Source: Gammaproteobacteria bacterium (GTDB lineage Bacteria > Pseudomonadota > Gammaproteobacteria > Arenicellales > Poriferihabitantaceae). Taken from it: 64,000 bases of DNA. How positions within the stretch are numbered: the first letter of the stretch is position 1; every line of letters starts with the position of its first letter. The notes below the pieces were generated by a model, which worked only from the letters and a program-made list of their open reading frames with translations, was not told where the DNA came from and made no database searches. Below are positions 13,475 to 48,484 of this stretch, piece after piece. The position numbers and the translations under genes are program-made. The stretch is taken from positions 20,261 through 84,260 of the forward strand of contig JAPOSW010000128.1 of NCBI GenBank assembly GCA_026709505.1. Reading direction: 5' to 3'.

Positions 13475-14083
13475 TCATGAAAGCTTCTCGGGCTTTCTCC
13501 ACCGGAATATCCAGCCATTGCATGTATCTTCTGGTGTGAAGACGGCAACTTGTTTAAAGATCGGTGACACTTTGTGCAGCGGTTCAAAACAAGTCATTGG
13601 GAAGTCCAAGAGCACGAGGCTCGACTGGATCATGTTGTCAGGAAAGTCATCTATTTGATCCGACCAGGCATTGCTGCCTCCATTACGTTTCATTTTTCTT
13701 GCTCGAGCTAGATTTAGAGCGACCAGTCTTCATTTTTATGTGACCCAGTCCCAGCCCGAAGTGCAACACTGCTCCTGTCTCTATTTTGTGGAAGGCATCA
13801 TCAACCCCATGAACGAGAATGATCTTGTGGTCTTGATCAATCTTGAACTGACTGTAATGCCCAGCTGTTGCACAAGTTCCTGACAAAATCGTCATTCAAG
13901 GCGGTAACGAACATTGCTGTCCAGTCGGTCGGAACGAGCCAAGCGCTCAGCAATACAGAAACTTGCGTCATGATAGTGTCGTTTGAAGGGTGGGCGGCAA
14001 GTAAGAAAGCCGCAACGAAAAAGACTCCCTTGATGTGAAAATTGACTTGACTCAAGCGAATGCATCGCTATATAACTAGCCAT
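13475..14083 (-). pseudogene. Possible frameshifted gene remnant: four short end-to-end minus-strand ORFs in an AT-richer gap
   Basis: ORFs 14083-13892, 14055-13837, 13895-13683 and 13693-13475 tile the same strand in shifting frames. No recognisable domain. Confidence 0.25.
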
Positions 14084-14330
14084 GATCTTTCAAATCCAGC
14101 CGCTGCTTTTGATTATCAGCAGGTGTCATCAATGCTTGGACCAAAGCCAGTATTTTCATAGCCCGCCAATTCAACAGTAAATGCTGATTTGACACGCTCG
14201 CAAGTGGTTGCTTTTGAAGTTGAATACTCAGGTTTCGTTATTAGAGTCTTCGTGCATGTGGGCCAGAAGCTGGATCTCGCTCCTGTAATGCTTAACCTAA
14301 ATGGATATCTACTCCTTGAGGATGTCGCTC

Positions 14331-17300
14331 ATGCCTAAAAAACCCCTGAAACATGGTCATGACAAGTGGGAATTCTGGGTCGATCGGGGCGGCACCTTCA
14401 CCGACATCGTTGCACTGCAGCCAGACGGTCAAATGCTCACTCACAAGCTTCTCTCTGAAAGCCCGGGATATCGCGATGCGGCGATCCAGGGCATTCGTGA
14501 TATCCTGAAAATCCCATCCGGGGACAACTTGCCTATTGAGAAAATTGCTGCCGTAAAAATGGGAACGACAGTGGCGACCAATGCACTGCTGGAAAGAACC
14601 GGGGAACCGACACTGCTGGTGACCACTCGCGGTTTCAGAGACCAGCTCAGGATTGGCTACCAAACCCGACCCGACCTGTTTGCACTCGATATCCAGCTGC
14701 CCGAAATGCTGTACTGTGATGTTCTGGAAGTCGATGAACGTCTCGATGCACACGGGAAGGTCATCAAATCCCTGGATGATGAAGCAGCCCGTCTGGGACT
14801 TGAACGATACTATGACGAGGGCATTCGCTCGGTGGCGATCGTGCTACTGCATGGCTATCGATATACGATGCATGAGGACTCCCTCAAGACTATCGCCGAA
14901 GCGATTGGGTATTCGCAGGTCTCGGTCAGTAACCAGGTCAGCCCGCTAATGAAATATGTGCCGCGTGGCGATACAACCGTTGTCGATGCATACCTTTCAC
15001 CGGTTATTCGCAAATATGTGGCGGAGGTAGCCGCTCAGTTAGGCGCGACTGACACTCCAGCTGGTCAACTCAAGTTGATGCGTTCGAACGGAGGTCTTGC
15101 GGATGCCCGCTTTTTTTACGGCAAGGACGCGATCCTGTCAGGCCCGGCCGGAGGCGTGGTCGGCATGGCCCGGGTCAGTGAAGCGGCCGGGTTCAGTGAG
15201 GTGATTGGATTCGATATGGGAGGAACCTCAACCGATGTCAGCCACTACAACGGCGAGTTTGAAAAATCCCATGAAACCGAGGTTGCAGGCGTCAGGCTAA
15301 GAGCCCCGATGATGATGATTCATACCGTTGCAGCCGGGGGCGGGTCCATTCTGCATTTTGACGGTGCCCGCTACCGGGTGGGTCCGGATTCAGCAGGCGC
15401 CAGCCCCGGTCCGGTCTGCTACCGAAACAATGGACCGTTGACCATCACGGACTGCAATGTCATGACTGGCAAACTACAGCCAGACATGTTTCCATGCGTG
15501 TTCGGCGAGACGGGCGACCAGCCAGTTGATGCAAGCCAGGTACGCATCAAGTTTGCTGAACTTGCCGAAACGATCCAGCAGCAAACCGGCGATGCCCGAT
15601 TGCCCGAAGAAGTGGCTTCAGGATTTCTCGCAGTCGCTGTTGGCAACATGAGCAATGCCATCAAGAAAATTTCAGTCCAGCGAGGCTATGATGTCACCCG
15701 CTACACGCTCTGCTGCTTTGGCGGAGCTGGCGGCCAGCATGCCTGCATGGTTGCCGATGCACTGGGCATGAACAAAATTCTGGTGCATGAGTTTTCAGGC
15801 ATCCTGTCTGCCTATGGCATGGGACTGGCTGACACGGTCGTGGACCGCCAGCAAGCGGTTGAGCAAATACTGGCAGGGCAGCTTGTGCAGGAACTCGAAA
15901 GCATAGCCAATGGCCTCAAGGCCGAGTGCGATAAACTGCTTGCCAGGCAAATTCCCCAAACCCACATGCAAAAGACACACTACAGAAATCTGCTGCATGT
16001 GCGTTATGAGGGATCCGACACCTCCTTTCCCGTTCTGCTCGCGCCGGTTGAACGGATACAGAGCCAGTTCGAGGAGGTTCACCGGATGCGTTTCGGATTT
16101 ACCTCCCCGGACAAGAAGCTGATTGTCGAATCCATTCAGGTAGAGGCGGTTCACAAGGCACGCTCAGCTGTAGCCGGCCCAAGCAAGGCGCAATCGCCTG
16201 TACAGTCGCACATGGCAGAGCCCGTTGCCGAAAGATCCTGCTACATGGATGGCGAGTGGCGTCAAACCCCGTTTTTTGAGCGTGAATCCCTGTTTCCCGG
16301 ATGTCAGGTCAAGGGGCCATCAGTAATTCTTGATGCAACCGGGACACTGGCTGTCGAGCCCGGATGGCAGGCCATTCTTGATGAGGGCGCAAATCTCCTG
16401 ATTGAGCGTTACGTCCCGCGCAAGGAATCAGTGGCAATTGGAACTGACGTAGATCCGGTTATGCTTGAAGTATTCAATAACCTGTTCATGTCAATCGCCG
16501 AGCAGATGGGTTCGGTGCTTGAGAACACCGCGGTTTCGGTCAATATCAAGGAGCGACTGGACTTTTCCTGCGCAATCTTTGATCCGGAGGGTGCGCTGGT
16601 AGCAAATGCCCCTCACATGCCGGTCCACCTGGGATCAATGTCAGAGAGCATCAAAACCGTGATTCGCGAGCGGTCCGGCCGGATGCGGCCAGGTGAAGCC
16701 TACATCTTGAATGCGCCATACAACGGGGGCACGCATTTGCCTGATGTTACGATTATTCGCCCGGTATTTTCCGAACAGGCAGAATTGCTCTTCTTTACCG
16801 CATCGCGTGGACATCATGCAGACATCGGGGGTAAATCCCCGGGCTCTGCGCCGGCAGACTCCACCCGCATCGAAGAGGAGGGGGTGGTCATCGACAATGA
16901 AAAACTGGTCGAGAATGGGCAATTTGCGGAGCAGTCAATCCGCAATCTTCTGACTGACAGCCCCTGGCCTGCCCGAAACCCGGATATGAACATTGCGGAT
17001 TTCAAGGCACAGCTTGCGGCCTGCGAAAAGGGAGCGCATGAGTTGCTGGGCATGATCGACTGGTACGGAAAAGAGACCGTCCATGCCTACATGAAACATG
17101 TTCAGGATAATGCAGAAGAATCGGTACGCCGAGTGCTGGATGTACTGAATGACGGACAATTTACCTATCGCATGGATGACGGACATCGGATTTCCGTCAG
17201 GATTTCCGTCGATCACAAGGCCCGCAGGGCAGTGATTGACTTCACGGGAACAAGCGGTCAGCATCCGGGAAATTTCAATGCTCCTACGGCGGTGGTCCGT

Positions 17301-28610: not shown

Positions 28611-29522
28611 TTAATTCCAGACATCGGTGCTCAAGTACCGCTCTCCTGTATCCGCCAGAATCGCCAGTAGGTTCCTGTCCCGATATTTTCCGGAACGAGC
28701 CAGTTCCAGCATTCCCCAGGTCGCTGCCCCACAGGAGATGCCAGCAAAGATCCCCTCCTGCTCCGCGAGGTCGCGGGTGGTCCCATAAGCCTGCCCAGTG
28801 GTGACCGGAATGATCCGATCAAACGATTTCATATCGAGCGTATCAGGTATAAAGCCGGGCGCAGTTCCCATGATCTTGTGCTTGCAGGCTATGCCCTGGC
28901 TGAGTATCGGTGAATCAGCCGGCTCCGTGGCCACGATTTCAAGATCAGGATTGCCGGGCCGCAAGTATCTGGACAAGCCGCTAATCGTCCCTCCGGTTCC
29001 AGTGGTCAGTATCACGGCCGCCAGATCAGAACCGAAATCCTTCTGGATCTCGCTGGCTGTCTGTTCGTGTGATTCAGGATTGGACGGGTTGTAGTGCTGC
29101 CCCACAAAAAAATAGCCCTTCTCCTTCTCAAGCCGCCTTGCTTCTTCAATGGCGCCCACCGTACCCTTCTCGGCAGGAGTGAGAATGACTTCTCCTCCGT
29201 AGATCTTGAGAATCAGCCTACGCTCCTCGCTCATGTCCTCGGACATCACGAATATGGATTGGTAGCCCTTGACCGCTGCTACCATAGCCAGGCCAATGCC
29301 GGTATTTCCGGAGGTGGGTTCGATAATCGTGTCTCCGGGCTTCAGGCGGCCATCGGCTTCGGCATCTTCAATCATGCGAAGTGCCGGGCGATCCTTGACC
29401 GATCCTCCGGGATTGAAGCGCTCCAGCTTGACCCATAGATTGGCACCGGTATCATGTCCGAGTTCGTTCAGTCTCACGACAGGAGTCTCGCCGATGCATT
29501 CAAGTATATTCTCGTATCTCAT
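28611..29522 (-). CDS. Cysteine synthase family PLP enzyme (CysK/CysM/CBS-like)
   Basis: PLP-Lys motif NPGGSVKDRPA, with TSGNTGIGLA and GTGGTISG. Confidence 0.8.
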   Translation of the reverse strand: MRYENILECIGETPVVRLNELGHDTGANLWVKLERFNPGGSVKDRPALRMIEDAEADGRLKPGDTIIEPTSGNTGIGLAMVAAVKGYQSIFVMSEDMSEERRLILKIYGGEVILTPAEKGTVGAIEEARRLEKEKGYFFVGQHYNPSNPESHEQTASEIQKDFGSDLAAVILTTGTGGTISGLSRYLRPGNPDLEIVATEPADSPILSQGIACKHKIMGTAPGFIPDTLDMKSFDRIIPVTTGQAYGTTRDLAEQEGIFAGISCGAATWGMLELARSGKYRDRNLLAILADTGERYLSTDVWN

Positions 29523-29652: not shown

Positions 29653-30591
29653 TCAATCAATTGGATCGCAACGCTTCCGGCTTTGCAAATACCCAACGAT
29701 CAATGCATCACGCCTTTGACTTAACTCTTGAGTGGTATCGCCCCTGGCTTCCCGGGCAACCCCGTCATACAGCATTTTGGCCAAATCTTCCGTCAACTCG
29801 ACCTCGCCAAGATCGTCCCACCATCTTCTGAAACTGTCTGCATACCGCTTGCAAAACTCATTGAGACCACCGGGACCAGCACCAAGATGAAACAGCATGT
29901 GTGGACCCATTGCCGCCCATCTGAGTCCGGGGCCTGCCCAGACCGCCTTGTCGACATCCTCAACCGAGGCTACCCCGTTTTCGACCAGGCTGATTGCCTC
30001 ACGCCACAGCGCGGCCTGAAGCCTGTTGGCAACATGAGCGGGAACTTCCTTGTTGACTCGAATCGTGATCTTGCCAACTCGTTCATAGAACTGTTCAGCG
30101 ATCTCCAGAACACCCTCTGCGGTTTTCGAATTGACCAGCAGTTCCACCAGAGGAATCAGGTGCGGTGGATTAAAGGGATGCCCGAGAAGAAACCGGGAAG
30201 GATTTTGCCATCCACGCTGCATCTCGCTCAGCATCAATCCTGAAGCTGAAGAGGCAACGACCGCGTCCTGCCCAAGGCGAGCTTCAATGTCCCTGAACAG
30301 GCTGAATTTCAGCTCAAGCCGTTCCGGCACGCACTCCTGAATAAACTGTGCATTTTCAACCGCCAGACCGGCGCTGGCATGGACATGCAAGGCATCAGGG
30401 CTGCCATGCTTGGTCATTCCAAGTGCTTCAAGGGTCGGCCAGCACGCCTCGACATAATCCTTCAAGCACCGTTCGCTCTCCGGTGCAGGATCATGGACAT
30501 GGACGCGCAACCCGGCCGACAAGAATAACGCGGTCCAGCTTGAACCGATGACTCCGGTGCCCAATACCGCAACTTCCTCAATCTCAGACAT
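29653..30591 (-). CDS. 3-hydroxyacyl-CoA-dehydrogenase-fold enzyme, L-carnitine dehydrogenase-like
   Basis: VAVLGTGVIGSSWTALFLSAGLRVHVHDPAPESE....ACWPTLEALGM mirrors the GxGVIGxxW...DPAP...WP.L signature I recall for LcdH/CdhA. Confidence 0.7.
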   Translation of the reverse strand: MSEIEEVAVLGTGVIGSSWTALFLSAGLRVHVHDPAPESERCLKDYVEACWPTLEALGMTKHGSPDALHVHASAGLAVENAQFIQECVPERLELKFSLFRDIEARLGQDAVVASSASGLMLSEMQRGWQNPSRFLLGHPFNPPHLIPLVELLVNSKTAEGVLEIAEQFYERVGKITIRVNKEVPAHVANRLQAALWREAISLVENGVASVEDVDKAVWAGPGLRWAAMGPHMLFHLGAGPGGLNEFCKRYADSFRRWWDDLGEVELTEDLAKMLYDGVAREARGDTTQELSQRRDALIVGYLQSRKRCDPID

Positions 30592-30611
30592 ATCTCCGAG
30601 CTCCGCTTGAC

Positions 30612-31385
30612 CTACTCGAGATCCAGATTAAGCGGCGATGTGGCGGTCAATCCACCATCCAGCGCATAGCACTGGCCGGTTGCAAAGGATGCGGCATCCG
30701 AAGCAAGCCAGGTTGCCAGCTCCGCTATATCCGAGGGACTTCCGAATCTTCCAGCCGGATGTCTCGACAAAGCGTCCTGCCTTGCCCTTTCGGGATCTTT
30801 TGCAGCTGAGAATGCGGCATCGGCCATCTCAGTCATAATCCATCCGGGCGCGATGGCATTGCATCGAATTCCGGGACCATGATCAACGGCAATTGACCGC
30901 GTCAGGCCGTGCACAAATGCTTTCGATGCGTTATAAATCGCCAGACCGGGGTCGGCAGCCTTTCCTGATATCGATCCCATATTGATAATCACGCCCCCAT
31001 CATGCATTAGCGGGATCAGCTCCCTGGAGCATGCGAACACTCCAAAAGCGTTAACTCCCATCAGCGTTTGCCAGTCTTGGTCGGTGGTTTCAAGAATGGT
31101 TTTTTCAATCTGCACGCCGGCGTTGTTCACCAGAATTGACAGCCTGCCGAATAACTGCTCTACCGTGCTTCGCAATCGCTGCACGTCTTCCATTCGCGAG
31201 ACATCGGCTCTCAGCCAATGTGCTTCAACAGGATAGCCATCCGGCCTATTGCTTCGACCACAGCAAACAACCGAAGCACCTGCCCGTATGTATTGCTCGG
31301 CAATCGCCCGACCGATACCTCGACCGCCGCCGGTGATTACTGCGGATTTTCCAGCAAGGACCCCGCTTGACTGACAGTCTGGCAT
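30612..31385 (-). CDS. Short-chain dehydrogenase/reductase (SDR)
   Basis: TGGGRGIGRAIA, NNAG and YNASKAFV (YxxxK). Confidence 0.85.
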   Translation of the reverse strand: MPDCQSSGVLAGKSAVITGGGRGIGRAIAEQYIRAGASVVCCGRSNRPDGYPVEAHWLRADVSRMEDVQRLRSTVEQLFGRLSILVNNAGVQIEKTILETTDQDWQTLMGVNAFGVFACSRELIPLMHDGGVIINMGSISGKAADPGLAIYNASKAFVHGLTRSIAVDHGPGIRCNAIAPGWIMTEMADAAFSAAKDPERARQDALSRHPAGRFGSPSDIAELATWLASDAASFATGQCYALDGGLTATSPLNLDLE

Positions 31386-31388
31386 TGC

Positions 31389-32318
31389 TCAAAATCCAAC
31401 CTGACCGGATCCTTTGAGTGCCAGCCGCTGGCGAGCCTCGTCAGGAGTCGCCACTTCAAGTCCCGATGACTCTATGCCAGACTTGATCCTCTGAACCTGC
31501 TGGGCATTGCTGACTGCCAGTTCGCCCCTGTCAATCCACAGGCTGTCTTCAAGACCAACCCTGAGGTTGCCGCCCATCTCATACGCCCTGGCCGCAAACG
31601 GCATCTGGTGCCGCCCCGCCGCCAGTACTGACCATTCATGATCATCGCCAAACAATTTGCCTGCGATTTGATGCATGTGCAGAAGGTTGTCAAAATCGGC
31701 GCCGACCCCGCCCAAAATGCCGAATATAAACTGTATGAACAGGGGCGGCTCGATCAGCTTGCGATCCACGAAATGTGCCAGATTATATAGATGTCCAAGA
31801 TCGTAGGATTCAAGCTCGAAGCGCGTGCCATGCTGGTCACCAAGCTCCTTCAGTGCATATTCAATGGTCTTGAATGTATTCGGGAAGATGAAGTCCCGCG
31901 TCATTTCCAGAAACGGCTTTTCCCAGTCGTACTTCCACGACTCATGCTTCTCCGCCATCGGGAATATTCCGAAGTTGAGAGAACCCATGTTCAGGGATGC
32001 CATCTCCGGACTGGCTTTCAGGGCCGCCGCCAGGCGCTGCTCAATGGACATCCCGAGACCGCCTCCGGTTGACACATTCACTACCGCATCACACCGATTC
32101 CGAATGCCCGGCAGAAACTGCATGAACGTCTCCGGTCGATAGTCAGGCTGGCCATTATCGGGATTACGAGCGTGCAGATGAACAATCGAAGCGCCGGCCT
32201 GACAGGCCTCGACCGCAGCATCTTCGATCTGCTTCGGGGTGATCGGCAAGTACGGCGACATGCTTGGGGTGTGGATACCCCCAGTGACTGCACAGGTAAT
32301 GATTACGGATTTTGGCAC
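31389..32318 (-). CDS. Beta-keto acid cleavage enzyme (BKACE / 3-keto-5-aminohexanoate cleavage family, DUF849)
   Basis: N-terminal IITCAVTGGIHTPSMSPYLPITPKQI, then IVHLHARNP and the TIM-barrel length of 309 aa. Confidence 0.85.
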   Translation of the reverse strand: MPKSVIITCAVTGGIHTPSMSPYLPITPKQIEDAAVEACQAGASIVHLHARNPDNGQPDYRPETFMQFLPGIRNRCDAVVNVSTGGGLGMSIEQRLAAALKASPEMASLNMGSLNFGIFPMAEKHESWKYDWEKPFLEMTRDFIFPNTFKTIEYALKELGDQHGTRFELESYDLGHLYNLAHFVDRKLIEPPLFIQFIFGILGGVGADFDNLLHMHQIAGKLFGDDHEWSVLAAGRHQMPFAARAYEMGGNLRVGLEDSLWIDRGELAVSNAQQVQRIKSGIESSGLEVATPDEARQRLALKGSGQVGF

Positions 32319-32383
32319 GGTTTTCTCTACATGGATAGTGACTCAGAAAAACTGATCGTCATCGGCTTTCATCAATCCGCTGC

Positions 32384-33145
32384 TCATAGGCGCATTTGCT
32401 GCACCTGAGCAGTCAACCCCCCATCAAGTATCCACAGCTGCCCTGTAGCATAGCCCGCCTCATCACTGGCCAGCCAAAATACCAGATTTGCAACATCCTC
32501 AGGGGTTCCATAGCAGCGAATCGGGTGAACTTCTCGCGCTGCCTCCCAGGATCGTTCACTGTCGCCCCCTTCGCCAAAGAAGCTCTTTAGCATGGGAGTA
32601 TCAATAAAACCCGGACAGATGGCATTCACGCGAATATTTTCCGGCCCATGGTCACATGCCATGGCCCTGGTCAGGGCATGAACTGCTCCTTTGGTTGCAC
32701 AGTAAGCTGCCAGTTTGGGGTCGGCAATGAACCCGTCATAGGAACCGAAATTGATGATGGAACCACCGGTTTTGCGCATCAAGGCAATTGCATGTTTCGA
32801 AGCCAGGAAAGTACCGGTCACGTTGATTGCAAAAATCCGGTTCCATTCATCCAGGGTTGTTTCCTCAATGGTTTTTTCGATTTCAATTCCGGCCGCATTG
32901 ACCAGAATATCGAGCCGGTCATGATGGCTCTTGATGTGTTGAACCAGATCAATCGAGCTTTGCTCACAGGTCACATCGCATTCCAGGTACTTGACTTCGG
33001 GATGCGTTTGCCTGACAAGGTCTGCCGCATACACTCTGGCACCCTCCCTGACCAGTCGCTCACAAATCGCCCGGCCAATCCCGCCGCAGCCACCGGTGAC
33101 GACGGCAATCCGGCCATGCAAGGGATGGTCCCTGTTTGCATTCAT
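32384..33145 (-). CDS. Short-chain dehydrogenase/reductase (SDR)
   Basis: TGGCGGIGRAI, NAAG and YCATKGAV. Start overlaps the Rieske stop (ATGA at 33142-33145). Confidence 0.85.
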   Translation of the reverse strand: MNANRDHPLHGRIAVVTGGCGGIGRAICERLVREGARVYAADLVRQTHPEVKYLECDVTCEQSSIDLVQHIKSHHDRLDILVNAAGIEIEKTIEETTLDEWNRIFAINVTGTFLASKHAIALMRKTGGSIINFGSYDGFIADPKLAAYCATKGAVHALTRAMACDHGPENIRVNAICPGFIDTPMLKSFFGEGGDSERSWEAAREVHPIRCYGTPEDVANLVFWLASDEAGYATGQLWILDGGLTAQVQQMRL

Positions 33146-34272
33146 GTTGAACAGGCTCTCCTGTAGGCATCCAAAACCAGGCCATGGAAATGGTGCACCG
33201 CATGTTCACTCATGCCGCTTTGCTCCGGGTCGACAAGGTAGCGCCCTTGCTTGAAGCCGGGTGTGCGCATTCCTCTCTGTACGCTTTCCACCAAACCGAT
33301 ATCTTCGGGTTGCAGGACCTCGTCAATAAAACGGATCGCCTCGAGCTCTGCCTCAATAGGCTGCTCGGTTTCGTAAAAGAAATCGAATTCTTCATGGGTC
33401 TGTTCCGGGCCCGCCGGGATGAATTTCCAGACCATGAAGTTCCCTCTTCCGGGATAACGCAACAGTGCCGTGTTTGGCCACAAGTACCAGACCGCATGAT
33501 CGGTGACCGTTGCATTGGCTACATCGTAAGCCTGATTGCCAGACATGCCGGCCCTGGCCATGTGACTGGAATAAATTTCGTGAGTGCGGACCTTGTAGCT
33601 ATCCATGTCCACCAGAGTACAGAAGTCCTTGTGCGCGACCGGACAGTGATAGCATTCCAGAAAATTGTCAACGACTGTCTTCCAGTTTGCCTGGATAGTG
33701 TAGGTCAGGCGATGGGCGAACTTGAGATCGGCAATGTCCGGCGCGTAAGAGCGAATCTCCTTCCGCAGATTTCCGGATAGCACAGACAGCGAGTCAGCTT
33801 CAGGATCCAGATTGACGAATACCAGGTCGCAAAATACCTCGATTCGGACAGCATCAAGACAAACGTCTTCCGGGTCAAAATTACTGATGTACTCGGAACG
33901 GCGCGCGGCTTGCAGGGTTCCATCGAGTCGATAGCTCCACGCGTGGTAGGGACAGACAATCAAGTTCCGGTTTCCCTCGCCTTCCAGCAACTCGTGCCCG
34001 CGATGCTTGCAGACATTGTAAAATGCCCTTAATTGGCCATGATGATCGCGAACAGCAAAGATGCCCTGTCCCTGGATTTGGGCTGTAATGTAGCTTCCGG
34101 TCTGCCTGAGTTTTTCAGCATGACAGAAAAACTGCCAGCTACGGTGAAAAATCTGGCTTCTCTCGATATCCAGAAATTTTGCATCGCTGTAGCAGTTCGC
34201 ATTGAGGGACCATGATCTGAGCGGGTCGGATACATAACCGCTGCTGATTCGATCAAATTCATCTTGATCCAT
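33142..34272 (-). CDS. Rieske oxygenase alpha subunit, closest in pattern to carnitine monooxygenase CntA
   Basis: LRAFYNVCKHRGHELLEGEGNRNLIVCPYHAWSYRLDG, ANWKTVVDNFLECYHCPVAH and QPEDIGLVESVQRGM...SGMSEHAVHHFH track the CntA sequence as I remember it along its whole length. Confidence 0.85.
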   Translation of the reverse strand: MDQDEFDRISSGYVSDPLRSWSLNANCYSDAKFLDIERSQIFHRSWQFFCHAEKLRQTGSYITAQIQGQGIFAVRDHHGQLRAFYNVCKHRGHELLEGEGNRNLIVCPYHAWSYRLDGTLQAARRSEYISNFDPEDVCLDAVRIEVFCDLVFVNLDPEADSLSVLSGNLRKEIRSYAPDIADLKFAHRLTYTIQANWKTVVDNFLECYHCPVAHKDFCTLVDMDSYKVRTHEIYSSHMARAGMSGNQAYDVANATVTDHAVWYLWPNTALLRYPGRGNFMVWKFIPAGPEQTHEEFDFFYETEQPIEAELEAIRFIDEVLQPEDIGLVESVQRGMRTPGFKQGRYLVDPEQSGMSEHAVHHFHGLVLDAYRRACST

Positions 34273-34543
34273 GCCGATTACCCCTGTCTATTCAATGTCC
34301 CTGTTGAATTCAGGCCAACTGAAAAACCGAACAATACGCCCAGAAAAACGGGACAAGCACTTTACCGTAATTCTCAAATTCACTTCCATGGCATTGAAGC
34401 TAGATGGTGTCCCGAAAAAGCAATTCGGAGCGATTAGACAAAGGAAGAGGTCCTGGATTGCATTGAAGTTTTTGCAGCGACATGTGTTCTGATCGTTTGC
34501 GTCTTTATTGGTCTTGCTTGCTACGGAGGCCTATTTGGGAACT

Positions 34544-35179
34544 TTACGGGGCCAATCGCTCAATGGACCAGCCTTCGGCCTGTCTGGTATACAGGAACCG
34601 GTCATGCAATCGATCTGCGCCCCCCTGCCAGAACTCGAGCGTATCGGGACAGACCCGAAACCCGCCCCAGAAATCCGGCAATGGAATCTCCCCTCCGGCA
34701 AACTTCTGCTTCATCCGCGCAAACTGCGTCAGCAGCATCTGCCTGGATCCAATCCGAGTGCTTTGCCCGGAAGCCCAGGCTGCGAGCCGGCTATCTTCGG
34801 GCCGCGAAATAAAGTACTGTGCTGATTCCCTGTGGGTTATTTTCTCGGCTTCTCCGGTAATCCTGACCTGGCGATCCAGCATGTGCCACGGAAAATGCAG
34901 GGCAACTTTGGAGTTGCCGGAAATCTCGCTGGCTTTCTGGCTTCCATAGTTGGTAAAGAACACAAAACCCCTCTGATCAAATGACTTCAAGAGGACCATG
35001 CGCTGACTGGGCCGCCGGCCTTGGCCAACCGTTGCCAGGGTCATTGCATTAGGATCGCTGATCTTCGCTTCAACAGCCTGGTTAAGCCATGATTCGAACT
35101 GGCGAAACGGATCACCATCAAGATCCTTGCGCCGCAAACCGCCCTTGACAAAGTCTCTTCTGAATGATTCAAGATCCAT
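34544..35179 (-). CDS. pdxH: Pyridoxamine 5'-phosphate oxidase
   Basis: KGGLRRKDL..DPF.QFE.WL and the C-terminal LEFWQGGADRLHDRFLY. Confidence 0.85.
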   Translation of the reverse strand: MDLESFRRDFVKGGLRRKDLDGDPFRQFESWLNQAVEAKISDPNAMTLATVGQGRRPSQRMVLLKSFDQRGFVFFTNYGSQKASEISGNSKVALHFPWHMLDRQVRITGEAEKITHRESAQYFISRPEDSRLAAWASGQSTRIGSRQMLLTQFARMKQKFAGGEIPLPDFWGGFRVCPDTLEFWQGGADRLHDRFLYTRQAEGWSIERLAP

Positions 35180-35696
35180 GCACAACACCGCCTGCTACTC
35201 TTTGCTCAGGCAACCAAATGCCGAAGCGATAGAATGTGTCATTTTTATCTTGTTTGCAATACCTGTATCAGCTTTCCTGTCCGCTAATTTCCGTCGCTGT
35301 GACTCGAAACCAGTCCTTGCCTGCATGCCGAAATTGCCTGTCTAGCTCTACGCTGTCCGTCATTTACGCCTCCCTCGGAGTCTCCGGCAATTCGCGCCTG
35401 GCCTGATTTTGCAAGGGCGGCCGCCTATGGCCGAGGCATTTCAACCCCGGCTCAAAATCGGCATTTTTCCATTTGGCATCTCCTAAATGCTTGATTGAAC
35501 GGTGTCATGCCAGCACCAGCCATGCGCAAGCCACTCTGGCATCGAAGCCAAAAAGTCCAGTACAACTGCAGAACCTGGTTTTCACATTCCCGTATGGAAT
35601 CCACATCAAGGGCATTTCCGGCCAATGAATCCGAATTTACCCCAAAACCCGCCGATAGGCGGACCTGCCCGTCTCGGTCTTTCCGATAAGTCGCCG

Positions 35697-36398
35697 CTAG
35701 ATTCCTAAATACCTTGTTTTCAATTCGGGATTAGCCTGAAGAGTACCGGGAGGCCCGTCCCAGACCACTCTGCCTTTTTCGATGATGTAATGATGGTCGG
35801 CAATCCGGTTTAGCTCTTCGATGTTCTTGTCGATTAGCAAAATGGTCATGCCGGATTCCTTGAGTCTGTTCAGGCATTGCCATATTTCCTGTCTGACCAG
35901 AGGTGCCAGCCCCTCCGTTGCTTCGTCGAGAATAAGGACTAGCGGATTGAGCATTAGGGCACGGCCAATTGCCAGCATTTGTTGCTCCCCTCCGGACAGC
36001 TGGTCGCCCGTATTGTTCAGTCGAGCCTGTAGTTCCGGAAAAAATTCGACGACCCGGTTCAGTGTCCATGGAGACTTGCTTGCCGCATAATTGCTGGACG
36101 CAACAGATAGATTCTCCCGTACACTCAGGTTGGGAAAGATCTGTCGTCCTTCGGGTACCAGCCCAATTCCTCTTTGCGCCACCTGATAAGGGGGCTTGCC
36201 GTCAATTCGGGAATCAAGAAAGGTGATTTCACCGGAACGACAAGGGGTAATGCCCATTATCGAACTGACTGTGGTGGTTTTGCCCATGCCGTTGCGGCCA
36301 ATCAGTGTCGTGACTTTTCCCTGCTCTATGTGCATGCTCATGCCGAAGAGTGCCTGTATTGAACCATAAAAGGTTTCTACTCCTTTCAGGTCAAGCAT
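35697..36398 (-). CDS. ABC transporter ATP-binding protein, LivF-like (HAAT family)
   Basis: GRNGMGKTT, LSGGEQQMLAIGRAL, LILDE. Its ATG overlaps the upstream gene by 8 nt. Confidence 0.85.
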   Translation of the reverse strand: MLDLKGVETFYGSIQALFGMSMHIEQGKVTTLIGRNGMGKTTTVSSIMGITPCRSGEITFLDSRIDGKPPYQVAQRGIGLVPEGRQIFPNLSVRENLSVASSNYAASKSPWTLNRVVEFFPELQARLNNTGDQLSGGEQQMLAIGRALMLNPLVLILDEATEGLAPLVRQEIWQCLNRLKESGMTILLIDKNIEELNRIADHHYIIEKGRVVWDGPPGTLQANPELKTRYLGI

Positions 36399-37143
36399 GC
36401 TCTTCACCCAGATAGGCACGCTGTACTTCGGGATTGGCACGGATGTTCTTTACGGTGCCGGTGGCAATGACGCTGCCGTGAACCAGCACGGACAAGGTAT
36501 CGGCCAGCGAAAAAACCGCATCCATGTCATGCTCGATCAGCAGGATGGTTGTCTGCTCTCGGAGCTTGGCCAGAAACCGGATCATCCGTGAACTTTCCTC
36601 CAGTCCCATTCCGGCCATTGGCTCATCCAGCAGCAGCAAGCGGGGCTTCATGGCCAGAGCCATGGAGATTTCCAGCTGACGCTGCTCCCCATGGGATATT
36701 TCAGCGGCGAGATGCCGAGCACGGTCTGCCAAGCCGACTTGCTGCAGGTAACCCATGCTCTTTTCAAGCATTTCGGAGTCCTTGTGTACTGGTCGCCAGA
36801 ACCGGTAGGAGTGGCCGTCGGCTCCCTGAACTGCCAGCATGACATTTTCAAGCACAGTCATCGGCATAAATACGCTGGTCACCTGGAAGGACCGTGCCAG
36901 CCCCAGCTGGGCCCGGCGAGACGAGGATAAAGAGGTGATATCGTGACCGTTGAATTCGATCTGACCCGCATCTGGCTTGAGTGCGCCGGAGATTTGGGCG
37001 ATCAGGGTGGTTTTGCCCGCTCCGTTGGGACCGATGATGGCATGGATAATTCCGGGCAGGATATCCAGCTCAACATGGTCGGTTGCAACAATGCCGCCAA
37101 AGCTCTTGCAGAGTCCGTTGGTACGCAACAGCGGTCTTGTCAT
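36391..37143 (-). CDS. ABC transporter ATP-binding protein, LivG-like
   Basis: GPNGAGKTT, ISHGEQRQLEISMAL, LLLDEP. ATGA overlap with the permease gene. Confidence 0.85.
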   Translation of the reverse strand: MTRPLLRTNGLCKSFGGIVATDHVELDILPGIIHAIIGPNGAGKTTLIAQISGALKPDAGQIEFNGHDITSLSSSRRAQLGLARSFQVTSVFMPMTVLENVMLAVQGADGHSYRFWRPVHKDSEMLEKSMGYLQQVGLADRARHLAAEISHGEQRQLEISMALAMKPRLLLLDEPMAGMGLEESSRMIRFLAKLREQTTILLIEHDMDAVFSLADTLSVLVHGSVIATGTVKNIRANPEVQRAYLGEEHA

Positions 37144-38135
37144 CGGTCGGATTGCCGTGTCCTCGAATCCAGTTTCGACAACATGCCATGGATGCCGCCC
37201 TTGCCGAAAAGCACCAGCAGGACCAGCAGCAGCCCGAATGGCAGATGCCAGTATTCTAGCCATGACGGATTCAGGAATTTCATGAACTCCGGCAGATATT
37301 GTTCCAGAATTACGAAGGCGCCGGTTCCAACCAGTGGCCCGAACAGGAAACCCGAGCCACCCATGACTACCATGAATATCAGTTCGCCGGAACGAATCCA
37401 GCTCATCATTTCCGGGCTGATGAATCCAGTGAAATTGCCGAGCAGCATGCCGGCAAGACCGCATGTGACCCCTGAAATCACGTAGCAGGTCAAGCGATAT
37501 CGATACGTATCGAAACCCAGTGACTGCATGCGCTGTTCATTATGTTTAGCGCCCGCAATAACGCGCCCAAATCGGGCCCGAACCAGCCGGTGCACCAAAA
37601 ACAGGGTTAACAGCAAGGTTGCAAATATCCAGTAATAGAGGGCAACAGGGCCCTGCATGGTGAGAAAGTCCGGAAATTCGCTTCTGAGGTAAATGACCAG
37701 GCCATCATCCCCGCCATACTCTTCAAGACTGACGAAGGCAAAGTAAACCATCTGGCTGAAGGCCAGAGTGATCATGATGAAATACACGCCCCTAGTGCGG
37801 AGACTTACCGCTCCCGCAAGGAGCGCAAAGACTGCACTCACAACGATAGTCAACCCGAGATGAAACCAGCCGTTGTAGAGATCGTAGTAGGCAGGGATTC
37901 CGACGCAATAGGCCCCAATGCCGATAAAGGCAGCATGCCCAAGACTGACCATGCCTCCATACCCCATAATCAGATTAAGGCTGGTGGCTGCGATTGCCAG
38001 TATCAGTCCCCGACTCAACAGATCCAGAAGAAACGGTTGGTCGGTCCACTGAAAAATCCATGGAGCGACCGCAAGCAGCACCAGCAGTACACAGTAGCAC
38101 CGTCCGGAAATGGATGACGGGAACCATGCCGTCAT
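37140..38135 (-). CDS. ABC transporter permease, LivM-like
   Basis: 331 aa polytopic protein. G(Y)GG(M)VSLGHAAF motif. ATGA overlap with the upstream permease. Confidence 0.85.
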   Translation of the reverse strand: MTAWFPSSISGRCYCVLLVLLAVAPWIFQWTDQPFLLDLLSRGLILAIAATSLNLIMGYGGMVSLGHAAFIGIGAYCVGIPAYYDLYNGWFHLGLTIVVSAVFALLAGAVSLRTRGVYFIMITLAFSQMVYFAFVSLEEYGGDDGLVIYLRSEFPDFLTMQGPVALYYWIFATLLLTLFLVHRLVRARFGRVIAGAKHNEQRMQSLGFDTYRYRLTCYVISGVTCGLAGMLLGNFTGFISPEMMSWIRSGELIFMVVMGGSGFLFGPLVGTGAFVILEQYLPEFMKFLNPSWLEYWHLPFGLLLVLLVLFGKGGIHGMLSKLDSRTRQSDR

Positions 38136-39058
38136 GCCCGGATTCCGGCAGGAGGGAACAGTCCCTGTGGCCTGAATGCCAGTACCACCGCCATGAGAAT
38201 ATAAACCAGCATCGCGGACAGTGCCGGTGCTGCTGTTTCAGCATAATCAAGCGACATGAATATTTTCAGCAGATCATCCAGGTAGGATCTTCCCAGAGTG
38301 TCGATCAGCCCGATCAGGATGGACGCATGGAAGGCACCCTTGATGGAGCCGATGCCTCCCACAATCACGACTACAAAGGCAATGATGATGATATCGTTAC
38401 CCATGCCTATGCTGGCCTCGGTAATCGGGGCGATCAGCATGCCGGCAAATCCCGACATGGTGGCACCGATTGCAAATACGATCAGAAACAGCTTGTGGAT
38501 ATTCACGCCAAGAGCCTCCGCCATGGTTCGATTGGAAGCCCCGGCCCGTATCATCATTCCAAGACGGCTGCGGGTAACGAGTACGCTGAGAATGGCTGCG
38601 ACAAGCAGACCGCCGGAAATGATAACCAGCCGGTAGGTTGGCAATACCAGAGATCCCAGTGTAACCTGACCGTCGAGAATTGCCGGCAGGGGAATGGCCA
38701 TCCCGGAGGGGCCCCAGACAATATGCACTATCGCATCGAAAATCAGAATCAGTCCGAACGTTGCCAGAACATGGTCCAGATGATCAGCGCGATAAAGACG
38801 TCTGGCAATAACCCGTTCAATCAGCGCACCCACTATAAACATGCCGACAAGGGCAACCAGAACGGCCACCAGAAAAGAGCCTCCGCGAGCCACAATGGAT
38901 CCACAGAAATAGGCTCCAATCATGTAAAACGACCCATGGGATAGATTGATGAAGTCCATGATCCCGAAAATAAGGGTCAATCCGGATGCCAGCAGGAACA
39001 ACAACAGCCCCAACTGCAATCCGTTCATCAATTGGGTCAGGAGCAGGCTCCAGTCCAT
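38132..39058 (-). CDS. ABC transporter permease, LivH-like
   Basis: 308 aa. N-terminus LTQLMNGLQLGLLLFLLASGLTLIFGIMDFINLSHG is typical of LivH. Confidence 0.85.
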   Translation of the reverse strand: MDWSLLLTQLMNGLQLGLLLFLLASGLTLIFGIMDFINLSHGSFYMIGAYFCGSIVARGGSFLVAVLVALVGMFIVGALIERVIARRLYRADHLDHVLATFGLILIFDAIVHIVWGPSGMAIPLPAILDGQVTLGSLVLPTYRLVIISGGLLVAAILSVLVTRSRLGMMIRAGASNRTMAEALGVNIHKLFLIVFAIGATMSGFAGMLIAPITEASIGMGNDIIIIAFVVVIVGGIGSIKGAFHASILIGLIDTLGRSYLDDLLKIFMSLDYAETAAPALSAMLVYILMAVVLAFRPQGLFPPAGIRA

Positions 39059-39097
39059 GGGGTCATGGCAATCTAGCCAAATCGTTCGAATGCCGAA

Positions 39098-40309
39098 TTA
39101 CATCTGGCATTCGGCAGCATAGGGGTCTTGGTGATTTTCGAATACGGTATCCACGATCCGGGTAGTCCAGCGCCCGGCTTCATCCTCCACCACCTCTCGA
39201 AGATAGAAATTCTGGATCGGCATGTGGTTATTGCCGTAGAGGTATGGCCCACGAACCGACTCGAAATTCGCCGCTTTCAAGGCTGCTCGAATTCCATCCT
39301 TGTCATCCAGATTCCCGCCCACAGCTTCTACTGCACTGTGAATCAGCATGATGGCATCATAAGACTGAGCACCGTAAAACGAAGGATATTTGCCGTGCTT
39401 ATCGAGATAGGCGGAGACGAACCTGCGGTTCCCCGGAGTATCCAAATCCGGCGACCAGAACATGGTCATCTTTGATCCGAGAACCCCCGACATCCCGGCA
39501 TCCTGAAAACGGGGCAGGTTGATTGAATCGACTGTGAACACCGAATACAACGGGAGCACATCCTGCAAGCCGGCCTGCTGGTACTGCCGGATAAAAGCCC
39601 CGCCGGCCTTGCCCGGATAGAACACGAAAAGTCCTTCAGCGCCCGATGCTTTCGCCTTGGCCAGTTCTGCCGAAAAATCCAGCTGGGCATCAGCTCCCCA
39701 CTTGGTTAAATCCCTGCCGACCACCTCACCCTGGAATGTCGACTCCGTTCCAGACAGCATATCCTTGCCAGCGGCATAGTTGGGAACCATGATGTACAGT
39801 GATTCAATGCCCTGCTGGGTCAGATATGCTCCCATGGCCATGGGGGTTTGATCATTCTGCCAGGATGTCGAGAAAAAATTCTCATGGCAAAGGACTCCGG
39901 CCATCTTTGAAGGTCCGGCATTGGCGCTGATCAGGAACTTGCCCGAATCCAGTGCCGACTGGCGCGAGGCCAGCAGTACATGGGACCAGATAAATCCGGT
40001 CACAAAGTGGACATCATCCTGCTTGACCAGCTTGTCGGTCTTTTGCTTGCCGATATCGGGCTTGAAACCATCATCCTCGATGATCAGTTCCACATCCAGA
40101 CCTCCCATCTTGTTTCCGATATGCTCCAGTGCCAGCTCGACCGAATTTTTCATGTCGGCGCCAATCACGCCCGCCGGTGTCGTCAATGTGGTCACGAATC
40201 CAATTCGCACAGAGTCCGCAGCCACCAATCCAGCCGGTAAAGCAGTGAACAGGATCGGCAAAATGACCCGGATCATGTAATGTTTCATGCTCATGATCTT
40301 ATTCCTCAT
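39098..40309 (-). CDS. Periplasmic substrate-binding protein of the Liv/HAAT (type 1 PBP) family; ligand unknown
   Basis: Signal peptide, then VRIGFVTTLTTPAGVIG and a length of about 400 aa. An alternative ATG at 40294 has GAGGA upstream. Confidence 0.8.
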   Translation of the reverse strand: MRNKIMSMKHYMIRVILPILFTALPAGLVAADSVRIGFVTTLTTPAGVIGADMKNSVELALEHIGNKMGGLDVELIIEDDGFKPDIGKQKTDKLVKQDDVHFVTGFIWSHVLLASRQSALDSGKFLISANAGPSKMAGVLCHENFFSTSWQNDQTPMAMGAYLTQQGIESLYIMVPNYAAGKDMLSGTESTFQGEVVGRDLTKWGADAQLDFSAELAKAKASGAEGLFVFYPGKAGGAFIRQYQQAGLQDVLPLYSVFTVDSINLPRFQDAGMSGVLGSKMTMFWSPDLDTPGNRRFVSAYLDKHGKYPSFYGAQSYDAIMLIHSAVEAVGGNLDDKDGIRAALKAANFESVRGPYLYGNNHMPIQNFYLREVVEDEAGRWTTRIVDTVFENHQDPYAAECQM

Positions 40310-45615: not shown

Positions 45616-46596
45616 TCAGTTCAGAATCAAGGCAGGTCGTCTTTCGCCACTCGGCGGATAACTGAAATGTTCGCGATAGCACTTGCTGAAATGATTTGAA
45701 GAATTAAACCCGCAGGACATGGCAATTTCAGATACCAGCATATTGGTCTGCTGCAAGAGATGGCGGGCCTGAATCAGTCTGAGTCGCTTGTAGTATTCAA
45801 TCGGACTGCAGTTGAGGTACTTGCGAAACAGCCGTTCAAGCTGGCGCCTCGAGACGCCGATATGACCTGCGATTTCCTCAAGCTCCAGCAATTCCTCCTT
45901 GTTGGCCTCCATGTAGACCACGGCTTCGGCTAGCTTGGGCTGGCTACCGCCAAGCAAAATCCGCAGCGACGAGGGCTGTCGGTCGTTCTGGTCACGCACT
46001 CTCTCAAGCATGAACTCTTCGGCAACCTCGTTGGCCAAAACGGTTCCGTGATGTCGGGCTATAAGATATATCATCAAGTCCATCGAAGCAATGCCGCCTG
46101 CGCAGGTATAGCGATTGCGGTCGACCTTGAACAGCACAGGACTAACGATCAAGTCGGGAAACTTTTCCATCAGACTCGCCATATTCTCCCAGTGGATGGT
46201 GCATCGATAACCTCTCAGCAGGCCAGCTTCAGCCAAGATGTAGGAACCTGTACACAATGCGCCAATATTGACGTGTTTCTTGGCCTGCATGCGCAACCAG
46301 TCACGAACCGGCTTGCTGACGCAGTCCTCAATCTGGAGTCCACCGCATACAAATACGCCATCGAGCCGACCGCAGCGCTTGAGTTTGGCGACATTGAACT
46401 GAATTCCGCAACTGGAGGTCACGGGATGTTTGCCCTCGCCAAGCAATACCCATTCATAGAGTTCATCGTTTAACAACCGGTTGGCCATGCGCAGTGGGTC
46501 CAGAGCCGCCGCAAAGGGCGTCAGCGAAAACCCGGGAAGGAGCAGGAAACCATAGCGAGTGGTTCGATTACGTGATTCTGGAACCTGCATTGGCAA
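45616..46596 (-). CDS. GlxA-family (DJ-1/PfpI-like domain + AraC HTH) transcriptional regulator, same architecture as GbdR/CdhR/SouR
   Basis: N-terminus YGFLLLPGFSLTPFAAALDPLRMAN...LCTGSYILAEAGLL. C-terminal AraC HTH VSRRQLERLFRKYL..SPIEYY...R...A..LL..T...V.EIA..CGF.S..HFSK.YR. Divergent from the MttB gene. Confidence 0.85.
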   Translation of the reverse strand: MPMQVPESRNRTTRYGFLLLPGFSLTPFAAALDPLRMANRLLNDELYEWVLLGEGKHPVTSSCGIQFNVAKLKRCGRLDGVFVCGGLQIEDCVSKPVRDWLRMQAKKHVNIGALCTGSYILAEAGLLRGYRCTIHWENMASLMEKFPDLIVSPVLFKVDRNRYTCAGGIASMDLMIYLIARHHGTVLANEVAEEFMLERVRDQNDRQPSSLRILLGGSQPKLAEAVVYMEANKEELLELEEIAGHIGVSRRQLERLFRKYLNCSPIEYYKRLRLIQARHLLQQTNMLVSEIAMSCGFNSSNHFSKCYREHFSYPPSGERRPALILN

Positions 46597-46755
46597 ACAT
46601 GTTTAGAGCTTAGGCGGATTATCGCTATACTTCACGCATGACGCAATTCATTCTGAGCAAGTCGTAATAAAACACGAAAAGTTTTCGACATATTTCTATT
46701 ATCCGTTATTTGGACTCAGTTCAGAACCTTGTATTTTCATTCCTTTTCATTCGAC

Positions 46756-48285: not shown

Positions 48286-48484
48286 TCCCCGACATCCGAA
48301 ACAAGGCGTGCATCAATTCAGTCAAGCCTGAGAATATGGGCTTCACAGCTTTCCCATAATCATTTGTCTTGCCGCAACAGCCGAAGAAAAACCAATCGTG
48401 CAGTCACTGGTCTGGCAGCACGGGGAATAAGGGGCGGGAGATCCATATCCGGCAATTATCAGAGAAATTGGCAGACCTTGGATT

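Follow-up and report, generated by a model that had tools for sequence, protein, structure and literature searches.

Several bacterial gene systems for the breakdown of carnitine and related betaines have been described. CntA-type enzymes convert carnitine to trimethylamine and malic semialdehyde, and CntA also cleaves gamma-butyrobetaine (PMC7948474). In the canonical pathway from carnitine to glycine betaine (cdhCAB of Pseudomonas aeruginosa; a Rhizobium operon, L092 among the loci fetched here), a beta-hydroxy acid is oxidized to a beta-keto acid, which is converted to an acyl-coenzyme A (CoA) and acetoacetate. In BBOX islands (NetSyn BKACE cluster 0; the Arctic SAR11 island, PMC12421898) an oxygenase is grouped with carnitine dehydrogenase, BKACE, thioesterase, aldehyde dehydrogenase and a betaine ABC importer, and in TsaMBCD-type pathways (PMC10579966) a Rieske monooxygenase is followed by a short-chain dehydrogenase (SDR) acting as alcohol dehydrogenase and by an aldehyde dehydrogenase. 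The system analyzed here is a five-gene cluster at positions 29653-34272 of a 64,000-nucleotide stretch of DNA, referred to throughout as the window, from Gammaproteobacteria bacterium (Arenicellales; Poriferihabitantaceae; assembly GCA_026709505.1, contig JAPOSW010000128.1, positions 20,261 to 84,260). The cluster combines a Rieske oxygenase with two SDRs, a BKACE and a 3HCDH-family dehydrogenase, and we suggest, with a probability of about 0.4, that it encodes a widespread, conserved catabolic module for a betaine-type quaternary-ammonium compound similar to carnitine or gamma-butyrobetaine, a module that uses non-canonical enzymes. Conservation, family assignments, non-orthology to the canonical enzymes and a quaternary-amine context were established by the analysis. 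The genes, in the order of transcription, and the region upstream of them are as follows.

33142-34272, minus strand: Rieske non-haem-iron oxygenase alpha subunit (376 amino acids; Pfam Rieske and Ring_hydroxyl_A)
32384-33145, minus strand: SDR1, classical short-chain dehydrogenase (253 amino acids; adh_short_C2, 206 bits)
31389-32318, minus strand: BKACE (309 amino acids, GTG start; PF05853, 336 bits)
30612-31385, minus strand: SDR2, classical short-chain dehydrogenase (257 amino acids; adh_short_C2)
29653-30591, minus strand: 3HCDH-family dehydrogenase (312 amino acids; 3HCDH_N and 3HCDH)
34273-34543, minus strand: intergenic region of 271 nt between pdxH and the Rieske gene

An earlier note on this DNA, made from the letters alone, had described five closely spaced minus-strand genes of these families, with pdxH, five Liv-type importer genes and a CysK-family gene as neighbors. 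Its coordinates and spacing agreed exactly with the open reading frame (ORF) list of the window, its family assignments were borne out by Pfam and NCBIfam profile searches, and the neighbors were confirmed. Intergenic spacing in that list, from the Rieske gene to the 3HCDH gene, is -4, +65, +3 and +20 nt, the SDR1 start and Rieske stop codons overlapping by 4 nt, and co-transcription of the five genes is likely because of this spacing. Base composition is even throughout the cluster region, and pattern scans of that region of the window for promoters and terminators gave no matches above shuffled expectation. The intergenic region at 34273-34543, itself without a promoter match above chance, is likely the putative site of the cluster's own promoter or operator. 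A weak terminator-like hairpin with a T-run lies at 34327-34343, approximately 55 nt 5' of the Rieske start codon; such matches were no commoner than in shuffled sequence.

The distribution of the oxygenase orthogroup was determined by scanning one genome per GTDB species with two orthogroup-specific peptide motifs, DNFLEC[YC]H and DHAVW[YF]LW. Confirmed members were present in at least 599 species-level genomes, and 7367 environmental relatives of the Rieske protein were recovered at E <= 1e-20, the best 120 of which were all approximately 380 amino acids long and 66-93% identical. Carriers are mostly marine or sponge-associated metagenome-assembled genomes (MAGs) of Arenicellales, Ca. Spongiihabitans, Poriferihabitaceae, Puniceispirillales, Hyphomicrobiales, Rhodobacterales and Acidimicrobiia, together with cultured Pelagibius, Paracoccus sp. 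MKU1, Tropicibacter and Ruegeria; at the protein level the window shares 93% identity with a Gammaproteobacteria MAG and 88% with an Arenicellales chromosome. Partner genes were counted in 54 non-redundant loci with at least 7 kb of sequence downstream of the Rieske gene, in which ORFs were called and searched with the window proteins. SDR1 was found downstream of the Rieske gene in 50 of the 54, often with overlapping stop and start codons, SDR2 in 40, the 3HCDH enzyme in 29 and BKACE in 24. Loci of both Gamma- and Alphaproteobacteria repeat the window order Rieske-SDR1-BKACE-SDR2-3HCDH, their proteins being 55-93% identical to the window's. Other layouts are a minimal Rieske-SDR1-SDR2 form, an extended Rieske-(betC)-SDR1-BKACE-Aldedh-SDR2-3HCDH form and the order Rieske-3HCDH-SDR1-BKACE, which likewise places a beta-hydroxy-acid dehydrogenase and BKACE close behind the oxygenase.

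The arrangement is far beyond chance. The cluster is real, as partner counts and recurring orders attest, and its invariant core is Rieske plus SDR1, usually with SDR2, BKACE and the 3HCDH enzyme being a frequently attached module. The view that the five genes form a functional unit, which was to be checked by comparing neighborhoods across genomes, thus held insofar as the same set and order are conserved across bacterial classes, but the five are not an invariant unit, since Rieske and SDR1 stand together in 50 of 54 loci and BKACE and the 3HCDH enzyme occur in roughly half.

The window's Rieske protein matched the CntA structure 6y8j over its full length (258 bits, 35% identity). With CntA and YeaW it has in common the fold, the length, the Rieske and 2-His-1-carboxylate ligands, the bridging Glu, the CxxC pair, the pi-cation aromatic residue and Tyr225. 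Identity to the CntA/YeaW proteins of Acinetobacter, E. coli and Klebsiella was 35-38%, versus 57-93% inside its own orthogroup, and plasmid-borne relatives showed the same clean gap, with orthologues from Rhizobium, Shinella, Ruegeria, Mesorhizobium, Roseovarius and Pseudomonas at 57-62% and true CntA/YeaW at 35-38%. The only PGAP name given to orthologues in cultured strains is "ring-hydroxylating oxygenase subunit alpha", not CntA. Judged by these comparisons, the oxygenase belongs to an orthogroup distinct from CntA/YeaW and is not a CntA orthologue. It also differs in its surroundings: no cntB lies adjacent, and where the partners of CntA are malic semialdehyde and malate dehydrogenases, those of the cluster enzyme are SDRs and BKACE.

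Residue conservation was computed over 81 orthologues. The Rieske ligands C88/H90/C107/H110, the iron ligands H209/H214/D324 and the bridging E206 were invariant, as were F204, the C207/C210 (CxxC) pair, Y226, R272 and L320. Group Va oxygenases have an aromatic residue at CntA position 203, where Vb demethylases have Asn, and a CxxC pair by the iron site (PMC7948474, PMC10952381). On these sequence features the protein is assigned to group Va, the quaternary-ammonium type, and not to Vb. N-dealkylation, which the earlier note had offered as one of two possible reactions of the oxygenase, is unlikely in view of this signature. In CntA, Tyr203 makes the pi-cation contact with trimethylammonium; the Y203F variant retains activity, and OxyBAC carries Phe there (PMC7948474). 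In the orthogroup the residue is an invariant Phe (F204). The polar contact Tyr225 is kept (Y226). Most other pocket residues (contacts from PMC7948474) differ. The polar contact Asn270, with Val271, aligns with the invariant Arg272, the alignment being uncertain by one residue; Tyr295, a polar contact at the carboxylate end, is Phe in 60 of 81 orthologues including the window's (F296) and Tyr in 20; and of the hydrophobic contacts, Tyr315 is replaced by Ile, Leu or Val (I316 in the window) and Phe319 by an invariant Leu (L320). Because the cation-binding end is conserved and the anion-binding end rebuilt, the predicted pocket fits a zwitterionic betaine held in a shifted register or of another length, and would fit choline less well.

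Like the oxygenase, the other enzymes lie at a distance from characterized carnitine enzymes. The BKACE matched PF05853 at full length (profile positions 2-274 of 274) and scored 491.8 bits against NF053538, 3,5-dioxohexanoate:acetyl-CoA acetone transferase, above the cut-off of 430. Its closest structure is 3e02 (422 bits), and 8RIO (BKACE15) scores approximately 359 bits; both belong to the same subfamily of approximately 310 amino acids. It is 31% identical to, and not an orthologue of, the canonical carnitine-operon BKACE of Rhizobium leguminosarum. BKACEs of the same subfamily, 54-62% identical to the window's, were also seen in plasmid loci L089, L090, L091, L095 and L096 in unrelated contexts (MFS/cyclase, aminotransferase, sugar-acid SDR/lactonase and CoA-ester lyase). 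Because of these contexts, the NF053538 name is not informative on physiology, and probably covers a functionally mixed subfamily. Two candidates derived from these matches were rejected. BKACE15 (Paracoccus denitrificans) was considered as the cluster orthologue, which would have supplied a substrate profile in vitro; the BKACE of the Paracoccus cluster is only a 390-bit relative, and BKACE15 itself stands in another context, that of an MFS transporter and a cyclase. Degradation of phloroglucinol or triacetate, suggested by the 3,5-dioxohexanoate name, was dropped for want of associated genes.

The 3HCDH enzyme scored 248 bits against NF005471, L-carnitine dehydrogenase (cut-off 414), and 242 against NF005716 (cut-off 592). 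Its best PDB match is lambda-crystallin, and it is 34.5% identical to the canonical (fused) carnitine 3-dehydrogenase. From sequence it is predicted to be of the type acting on free beta-hydroxy acids, with L-carnitine dehydrogenase and lambda-crystallin as relatives. In SDR1 the TGGxGGIG motif and the Ser...YxxxK residues are present and no NCBIfam equivalog cut-off was reached; SDR2 is its paralogue (47% identity) with intact catalytic residues, and no close characterized relative of either was found among solved structures. The cluster enzymes are therefore not ordinary carnitine-pathway isozymes, a possibility the earlier note had said would undo its reading, in light of the 35-38% identity of the Rieske protein to CntA/YeaW and the 34.5% and 31% of the 3HCDH enzyme and BKACE to the canonical pair. 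Compared with the canonical carnitine-to-glycine-betaine pathway, the cluster has the same three enzyme families and, in relatives, the same CdhR/GlxA regulator family, and it would follow the same logic from beta-hydroxy acid by way of beta-keto acid to acyl-CoA and acetoacetate; it differs in the addition of the Rieske oxygenase and two SDRs and in having no CoA-ligase, acyl-CoA dehydrogenase or dehydratase genes. The betainyl-CoA thioesterase and CdhR/GlxA regulator of the canonical operon are not adjacent to the window's cluster.

Genomic context in relatives was surveyed by clustering the neighboring ORFs and annotating recurrent families, and annotated records of cultured strains were added. 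In cultured Ruegeria, Paracoccus, Mesorhizobium and Pseudomonas the operon is extended by a regulator, sulfatase, aldehyde dehydrogenase, reductase, thioesterase and ABC importers. Over the 54 loci, a GlxA/AraC regulator with a DJ-1 domain (GbdR/CdhR type) was present in 18, a true choline sulfatase (TIGR03417, 695 bits versus a cut-off of 433) in 15, and an operon aldehyde dehydrogenase in 10, which falls in the 4-aminobutyraldehyde/betaine-aldehyde subfamily (657 bits, cut-off 615) and shares only 31-33% identity with the malic semialdehyde dehydrogenase from the cnt operon of Acinetobacter. A thioesterase (4HBT_2) found in 3 loci matches only the thioesterase domain of the fused carnitine 3-dehydrogenase (33-44% identity). 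A reductase of the PDR/VanB or FAD type is adjacent in approximately 5, the PDR-type reductase of Pseudomonas sp. MPC6 being 35% identical to CntB. Importers in relatives are OpuAC/ProU-type or choline-type ABC systems. Genes for demethylation of glycine betaine and proline betaine recur as neighbors, no trimethylamine-oxidation genes were present in 85 neighborhoods of Rieske loci, and no canonical carnitine genes were found beside the Rieske loci.

Substrate, regiochemistry and step order we infer as follows. The Rieske oxygenase would grip the trimethylammonium head of its substrate against the invariant Phe204, receive electrons from a reductase encoded elsewhere in this genome, and hydroxylate a methylene of an omega-trimethylammonio carboxylate with no C-N cleavage, in the simplest case C3 of gamma-butyrobetaine to give carnitine. 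The translationally coupled SDR1 would oxidize the new alcohol to a beta-keto acid (3-dehydrocarnitine or a homologue), SDR2 perhaps handling the other enantiomer, and the 3HCDH enzyme, by the chemistry of its family, would bring an imported pre-formed beta-hydroxy acid to the same keto acid. BKACE, again by family chemistry, would transfer the acyl part to acetyl-CoA, yielding acetoacetate and a betainyl-CoA-like thioester. In other genomes a betainyl-CoA-type thioesterase of the same operon would free glycine betaine, which in this genome could then be demethylated by an MttB/corrinoid system 11 kb away. The scheme as a whole, a CoA-independent and O2-dependent shortening of a betaine by two carbons, is held tentatively, at somewhat below even odds. 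That the Rieske protein beta-hydroxylates gamma-butyrobetaine or another omega-trimethylammonio acid, providing a third non-homologous route to carnitine-type intermediates and, with the SDRs and BKACE, a "beta-oxidation" ending in glycine betaine, is possible, if doubtful. The earlier note had thought logical a chain of hydroxylation, beta-keto acid formation and BKACE cleavage, possibly acting on gamma-butyrobetaine, and of the sequences of steps considered this one is the most consistent with the evidence.

Retention of the nitrogen, with glycine betaine or a close analogue as end product, is suggested because the aldehyde dehydrogenase is of the amino-aldehyde type, the thioesterase of the betainyl-CoA type and the regulators GbdR/CdhR-like, and because betaine-demethylation genes recur as neighbors. 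The same conclusion is drawn from the MttB system of the window, from a cluster of Roseovarius pelagicus (described below) and from the analogous operons, in which a BBOX or CoA route is joined to 3HCDH, BKACE, thioesterase and a GlxA regulator. BBOX islands resemble the cluster and its extended forms in the grouping of functions; they differ in their oxygenase, a 2-oxoglutarate-dependent dioxygenase with no relation to the Rieske family. TsaMBCD-type pathways, which share the succession of Rieske enzyme and SDR, act on aromatic methyl groups with an oxygenase of another Rieske group and have no BKACE.

A number of points weigh against the proposed scheme. We know of no Rieske enzyme that makes carnitine. 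CntA, the only close homologue that has been characterized, breaks the C-N bond of gamma-butyrobetaine as well as that of carnitine (PMC7948474). The alignment of R272 with CntA is uncertain by one residue. BKACE15, the one well-studied member of the BKACE subfamily of approximately 310 amino acids, takes neutral C5-C6 beta-keto acids in vitro (PMC11961710), and under NCBIfam the cluster's BKACE would carry the NF053538 name. Three dehydrogenases exceed what the scheme needs, the role given to SDR2 being ad hoc, and the choline sulfatase of 15 loci has no part in a gamma-butyrobetaine route. BKACE and the 3HCDH enzyme are missing from about half of the loci, where the scheme would need them from elsewhere in the genome. 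Thioesterase and reductase are rarely adjacent, and the parts that complete the pathway elsewhere are missing from the window, over whose 64 kb no reductase, thioesterase or aldehyde dehydrogenase was found, nor any regulator adjacent to the cluster; sulfatase and OpuAC are absent from it as well.

The main alternative is that the oxygenase works as CntA does. In a betaine (carnitine, gamma-butyrobetaine and beta-alanine betaine are candidates, as is a sulfonium analogue) it would hydroxylate the carbon bound to nitrogen and so release trimethylamine and an aldehyde-acid, leaving the SDRs, the 3HCDH enzyme and BKACE to process a nitrogen-free skeleton. Malic semialdehyde could then pass through 3,4-dihydroxybutyrate and 4-hydroxy-3-oxobutyrate to glycolyl-CoA and acetoacetate, or malonate semialdehyde could arise from a C3 betaine, for which the Arg in place of Asn could suit the shorter substrate. 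CntA is the closest characterized enzyme and a full-length match with the catalytic features and pi-cation aromatic residue kept, such genes have already been called cntA in sponge and ocean studies, the related BKACE15 prefers neutral substrates and accepts malonate semialdehyde (PMC11961710), and close coupling to a dehydrogenase would keep a reactive aldehyde from doing harm. The clean gap between the orthogroup and CntA/YeaW (35-38% identity) and the PGAP name argue the other way, however, as do the lack of an adjacent cntB-type reductase at most loci, an aldehyde dehydrogenase of the amino-aldehyde rather than the malic/succinic semialdehyde type, the betainyl-CoA type of the thioesterase, and the recurrence of betaine-demethylation genes where trimethylamine-oxidation genes are absent from all 85 neighborhoods; reducing malic semialdehyde and reoxidizing it would also be wasteful beside direct oxidation to malate. 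On this balance, trimethylamine release is unlikely.

The presence of a true choline sulfatase inside the operon at 15 loci, with the BADH-related aldehyde dehydrogenase and a choline-type binding protein, raises instead the possibility of an island under a shared GbdR-type regulon, in which the enzymes work independently on various quaternary amines, all of them channeled to glycine betaine. The Rieske protein would then be a choline monooxygenase (CMO), or would oxidatively cleave choline-O-sulfate, together with the aldehyde dehydrogenase, and the remaining genes would degrade D- and L-carnitine, stereoisomers that a pair of SDRs would suit. Some members are labeled choline monooxygenase by JGI, plant CMO is also a group Va enzyme (PMC7948474) and bacterial CMO-like proteins have been noted (PMC6157903). 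Yet SDR1 is the invariant partner of the Rieske gene (50 of 54 loci, stop and start often overlapping), whereas the aldehyde dehydrogenase is present in just 10; the invariant pocket Arg suggests an anionic group, which choline lacks; the 3HCDH enzyme and BKACE are not canonical carnitine enzymes; and in a second type of cluster, too, a BKACE of this clade stands with a Va-like Rieske oxygenase. Such an island is therefore distinctly improbable. Least credible, and very improbable, is a pathway outside quaternary-amine metabolism, in which a neutral or aromatic compound would be degraded via 3,5-dioxohexanoate-type intermediates. The NF053538 score above cut-off, the generic PGAP name of a ring-hydroxylating oxygenase and a Liv-type binding protein in the window most like aromatic-acid binders speak for it. 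Against these stand the group V Rieske protein with its CxxC pair and pi-cation aromatic residue, the betaine, choline or carnitine type of all regulators, importers, sulfatase, aldehyde dehydrogenase and thioesterase in relatives, the breadth of NF053538 across BKACEs in unrelated contexts, and the absence of ring-cleavage or beta-subunit genes.

The second type of cluster just mentioned was observed on a Roseovarius pelagicus plasmid (L094 8989-17061), where a BKACE 66% identical to the window's is paired with a Va-like Rieske oxygenase other than the cluster's, one whose pi-cation residue is Phe (ENFMEGYH). Its other genes encode an alpha/beta-hydrolase, an aldehyde dehydrogenase, a GMC choline dehydrogenase, a PaaI thioesterase, another Rieske protein and sarcosine oxidase.

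In the window, the five-gene cluster is flanked by the following genes, and a group of further genes lies 11 kb away.

28611-29522: cysK, downstream of the cluster after a 130-nt gap (TIGR01139, 361 bits versus a cut-off of 351)
34544-35188: pdxH, upstream of the Rieske gene after the 271-nt gap
35697-40309, minus strand: Liv-type ABC importer, five genes (Peripla_BP_6, BPD_transp_2 and ABC_tran)
39098-40309, minus strand: Liv-type binding protein (Peripla_BP_6)
38132-39058 and 37140-38135, minus strand: Liv permeases (BPD_transp_2)
approximately 36391-37143, and 35697-36440, minus strand: Liv ABC ATPases
45616-46596, minus strand: GlxA/GbdR-type regulator (DJ-1_PfpI and AraC HTH, Pfam)
46729-48285, plus strand: MttB-superfamily methyltransferase, divergent from the regulator
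48485-50506: RACo corrinoid activase, after the MttB gene
50503-50880: GFA protein, after RACo
50902-51822: pterin-binding methyltransferase, after the GFA gene

The importer belongs to the Liv/Bra type, with a Peripla_BP_6 protein, two BPD_transp_2 permeases and two ABC ATPases encoded consecutively. Both ATPase ORFs were seen to be over-extended at the 5' end: in the LivG ORF (36391-37464) the ABC domain begins at residue 129, and the L002 orthologues are 250 and 233 amino acids long. The true LivG start probably lies near 37143, overlapping the permease stop codon. The importer is syntenic with the cluster in the fetched loci L002, L003, L006, L007 and L065. In L047, a Puniceispirillales MAG, a homologue sharing 46-51% identity is encoded downstream of the cluster. 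The best PDB relatives of the binding protein are aromatic-acid binders, at just 138 bits. The suggestion that the substrate is imported through an amino-acid-type ABC system did not hold as a trait of the module, since Liv genes accompany it only in the window's lineage and L047, with OpuAC/ProU- or choline-type importers elsewhere, and the Liv system is a candidate importer in the window's lineage only. pdxH and cysK adjoin the cluster in 3 of 54 loci and, like the importer, are lineage-specific neighbors. Vitamin B6 catabolism, considered in view of the adjacent pdxH and weak matches to pyridoxal 4-dehydrogenase and FHMPC dehydrogenase, was rejected, as the scores were far under the cut-offs and pdxH recurs in only those 3 loci.

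The regulator at 45616-46596 is the window's only regulator of the type associated with the cluster in relatives. By tblastn it shares 34-36% identity with those that adjoin the cluster in L087 and L010, and it probably serves the neighboring MttB system alone. Against PDB 4yyc the MttB protein scored 778 bits; two glycine betaine methyltransferases, 2qne and 9yce, matched it at approximately 436 bits. Judged by these matches, the region 45616-51822 looks like a corrinoid-dependent demethylation system of the glycine betaine type in an aerobe, and would be a plausible sink for the product of the cluster.

The module is horizontally mobile, because insertion sequence (IS) elements lie nearby and one copy is on a conjugative plasmid. 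In Pseudomonas sp. MPC6 the cluster is on such a plasmid beside an IS6 element (L087 9712-10401), in Mesorhizobium amorphae an IS66 element lies approximately 7 kb upstream (L088 1372-3811), and in L001 an IS110 transposase gene (14725-15735) directly follows the last cluster gene. The minimal Rieske-SDR1-SDR2 form was observed in two further settings. In Arenicellales MAGs (L016 2611-9114, L022 2717-9220 and L013 464-4833) it lies beside two additional Rieske oxygenases, GbcA-like at 130-140 bits and under the cut-off, with an MR/MLE-family enzyme, an OYE+FAD enzyme, a GNAT protein, a sulfotransferase-domain protein and an RpiR regulator, a gene set that resembles catabolic loci for proline betaine and hydroxyproline betaine. 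In gammaproteobacterial MAGs (L039, L049 and L050; approximately 1900-8800 and 12740-14130) it is flanked by conserved genes for an EamA transporter, an adenylate/guanylate cyclase, an MR/MLE enzyme, a fatty-acid-hydroxylase-family protein and a cNMP-binding Ser/Thr kinase, in which no obvious link to betaine metabolism was seen.

No published characterization of this gene set was found in full-text searches of the literature, in agreement with the earlier note, which knew of no characterized pathway with it, and the NetSyn catalogue of BKACE contexts holds carnitine clusters of the BBOX and CoA types and no Rieske-containing context. Studies of sponges and the ocean refer to "cntAB homologues" or a "CntA-like pathway" assigned by homology alone. 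Known, then, are the enzyme families and the general logic; new are the orthogroups and their combination and, probably, the substrate or the regiochemistry. The hosts of the oxygenase orthogroup, with its at least 599 species-level genomes and thousands of environmental sequences, range from sponge symbionts, Roseobacters and SAR116-type bacteria to rhizobia and a conjugative Pseudomonas plasmid, and complete operons are available in cultured Ruegeria sp. THAF33, Paracoccus sp. MKU1, Mesorhizobium amorphae CCNWGS0123 and Pseudomonas sp. MPC6. Calling this orthogroup cntA in ocean and sponge surveys may be a misannotation. Metagenomic cntA readings are used to infer the formation of trimethylamine, and then methane, from carnitine, which would be wrong for this lineage were the nitrogen retained and passed on into glycine betaine. 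If the beta-hydroxylase reading is true, trimethylamine is not what the abundant cntA-like genes in marine and sponge-associated bacteria produce, group V Rieske oxygenases would gain a new regiochemistry, a BKACE clade now named after an in vitro activity would gain a physiological role, and the 2-oxoglutarate-dependent gamma-butyrobetaine hydroxylase and the CoA-dependent pathway would be joined by a third route.

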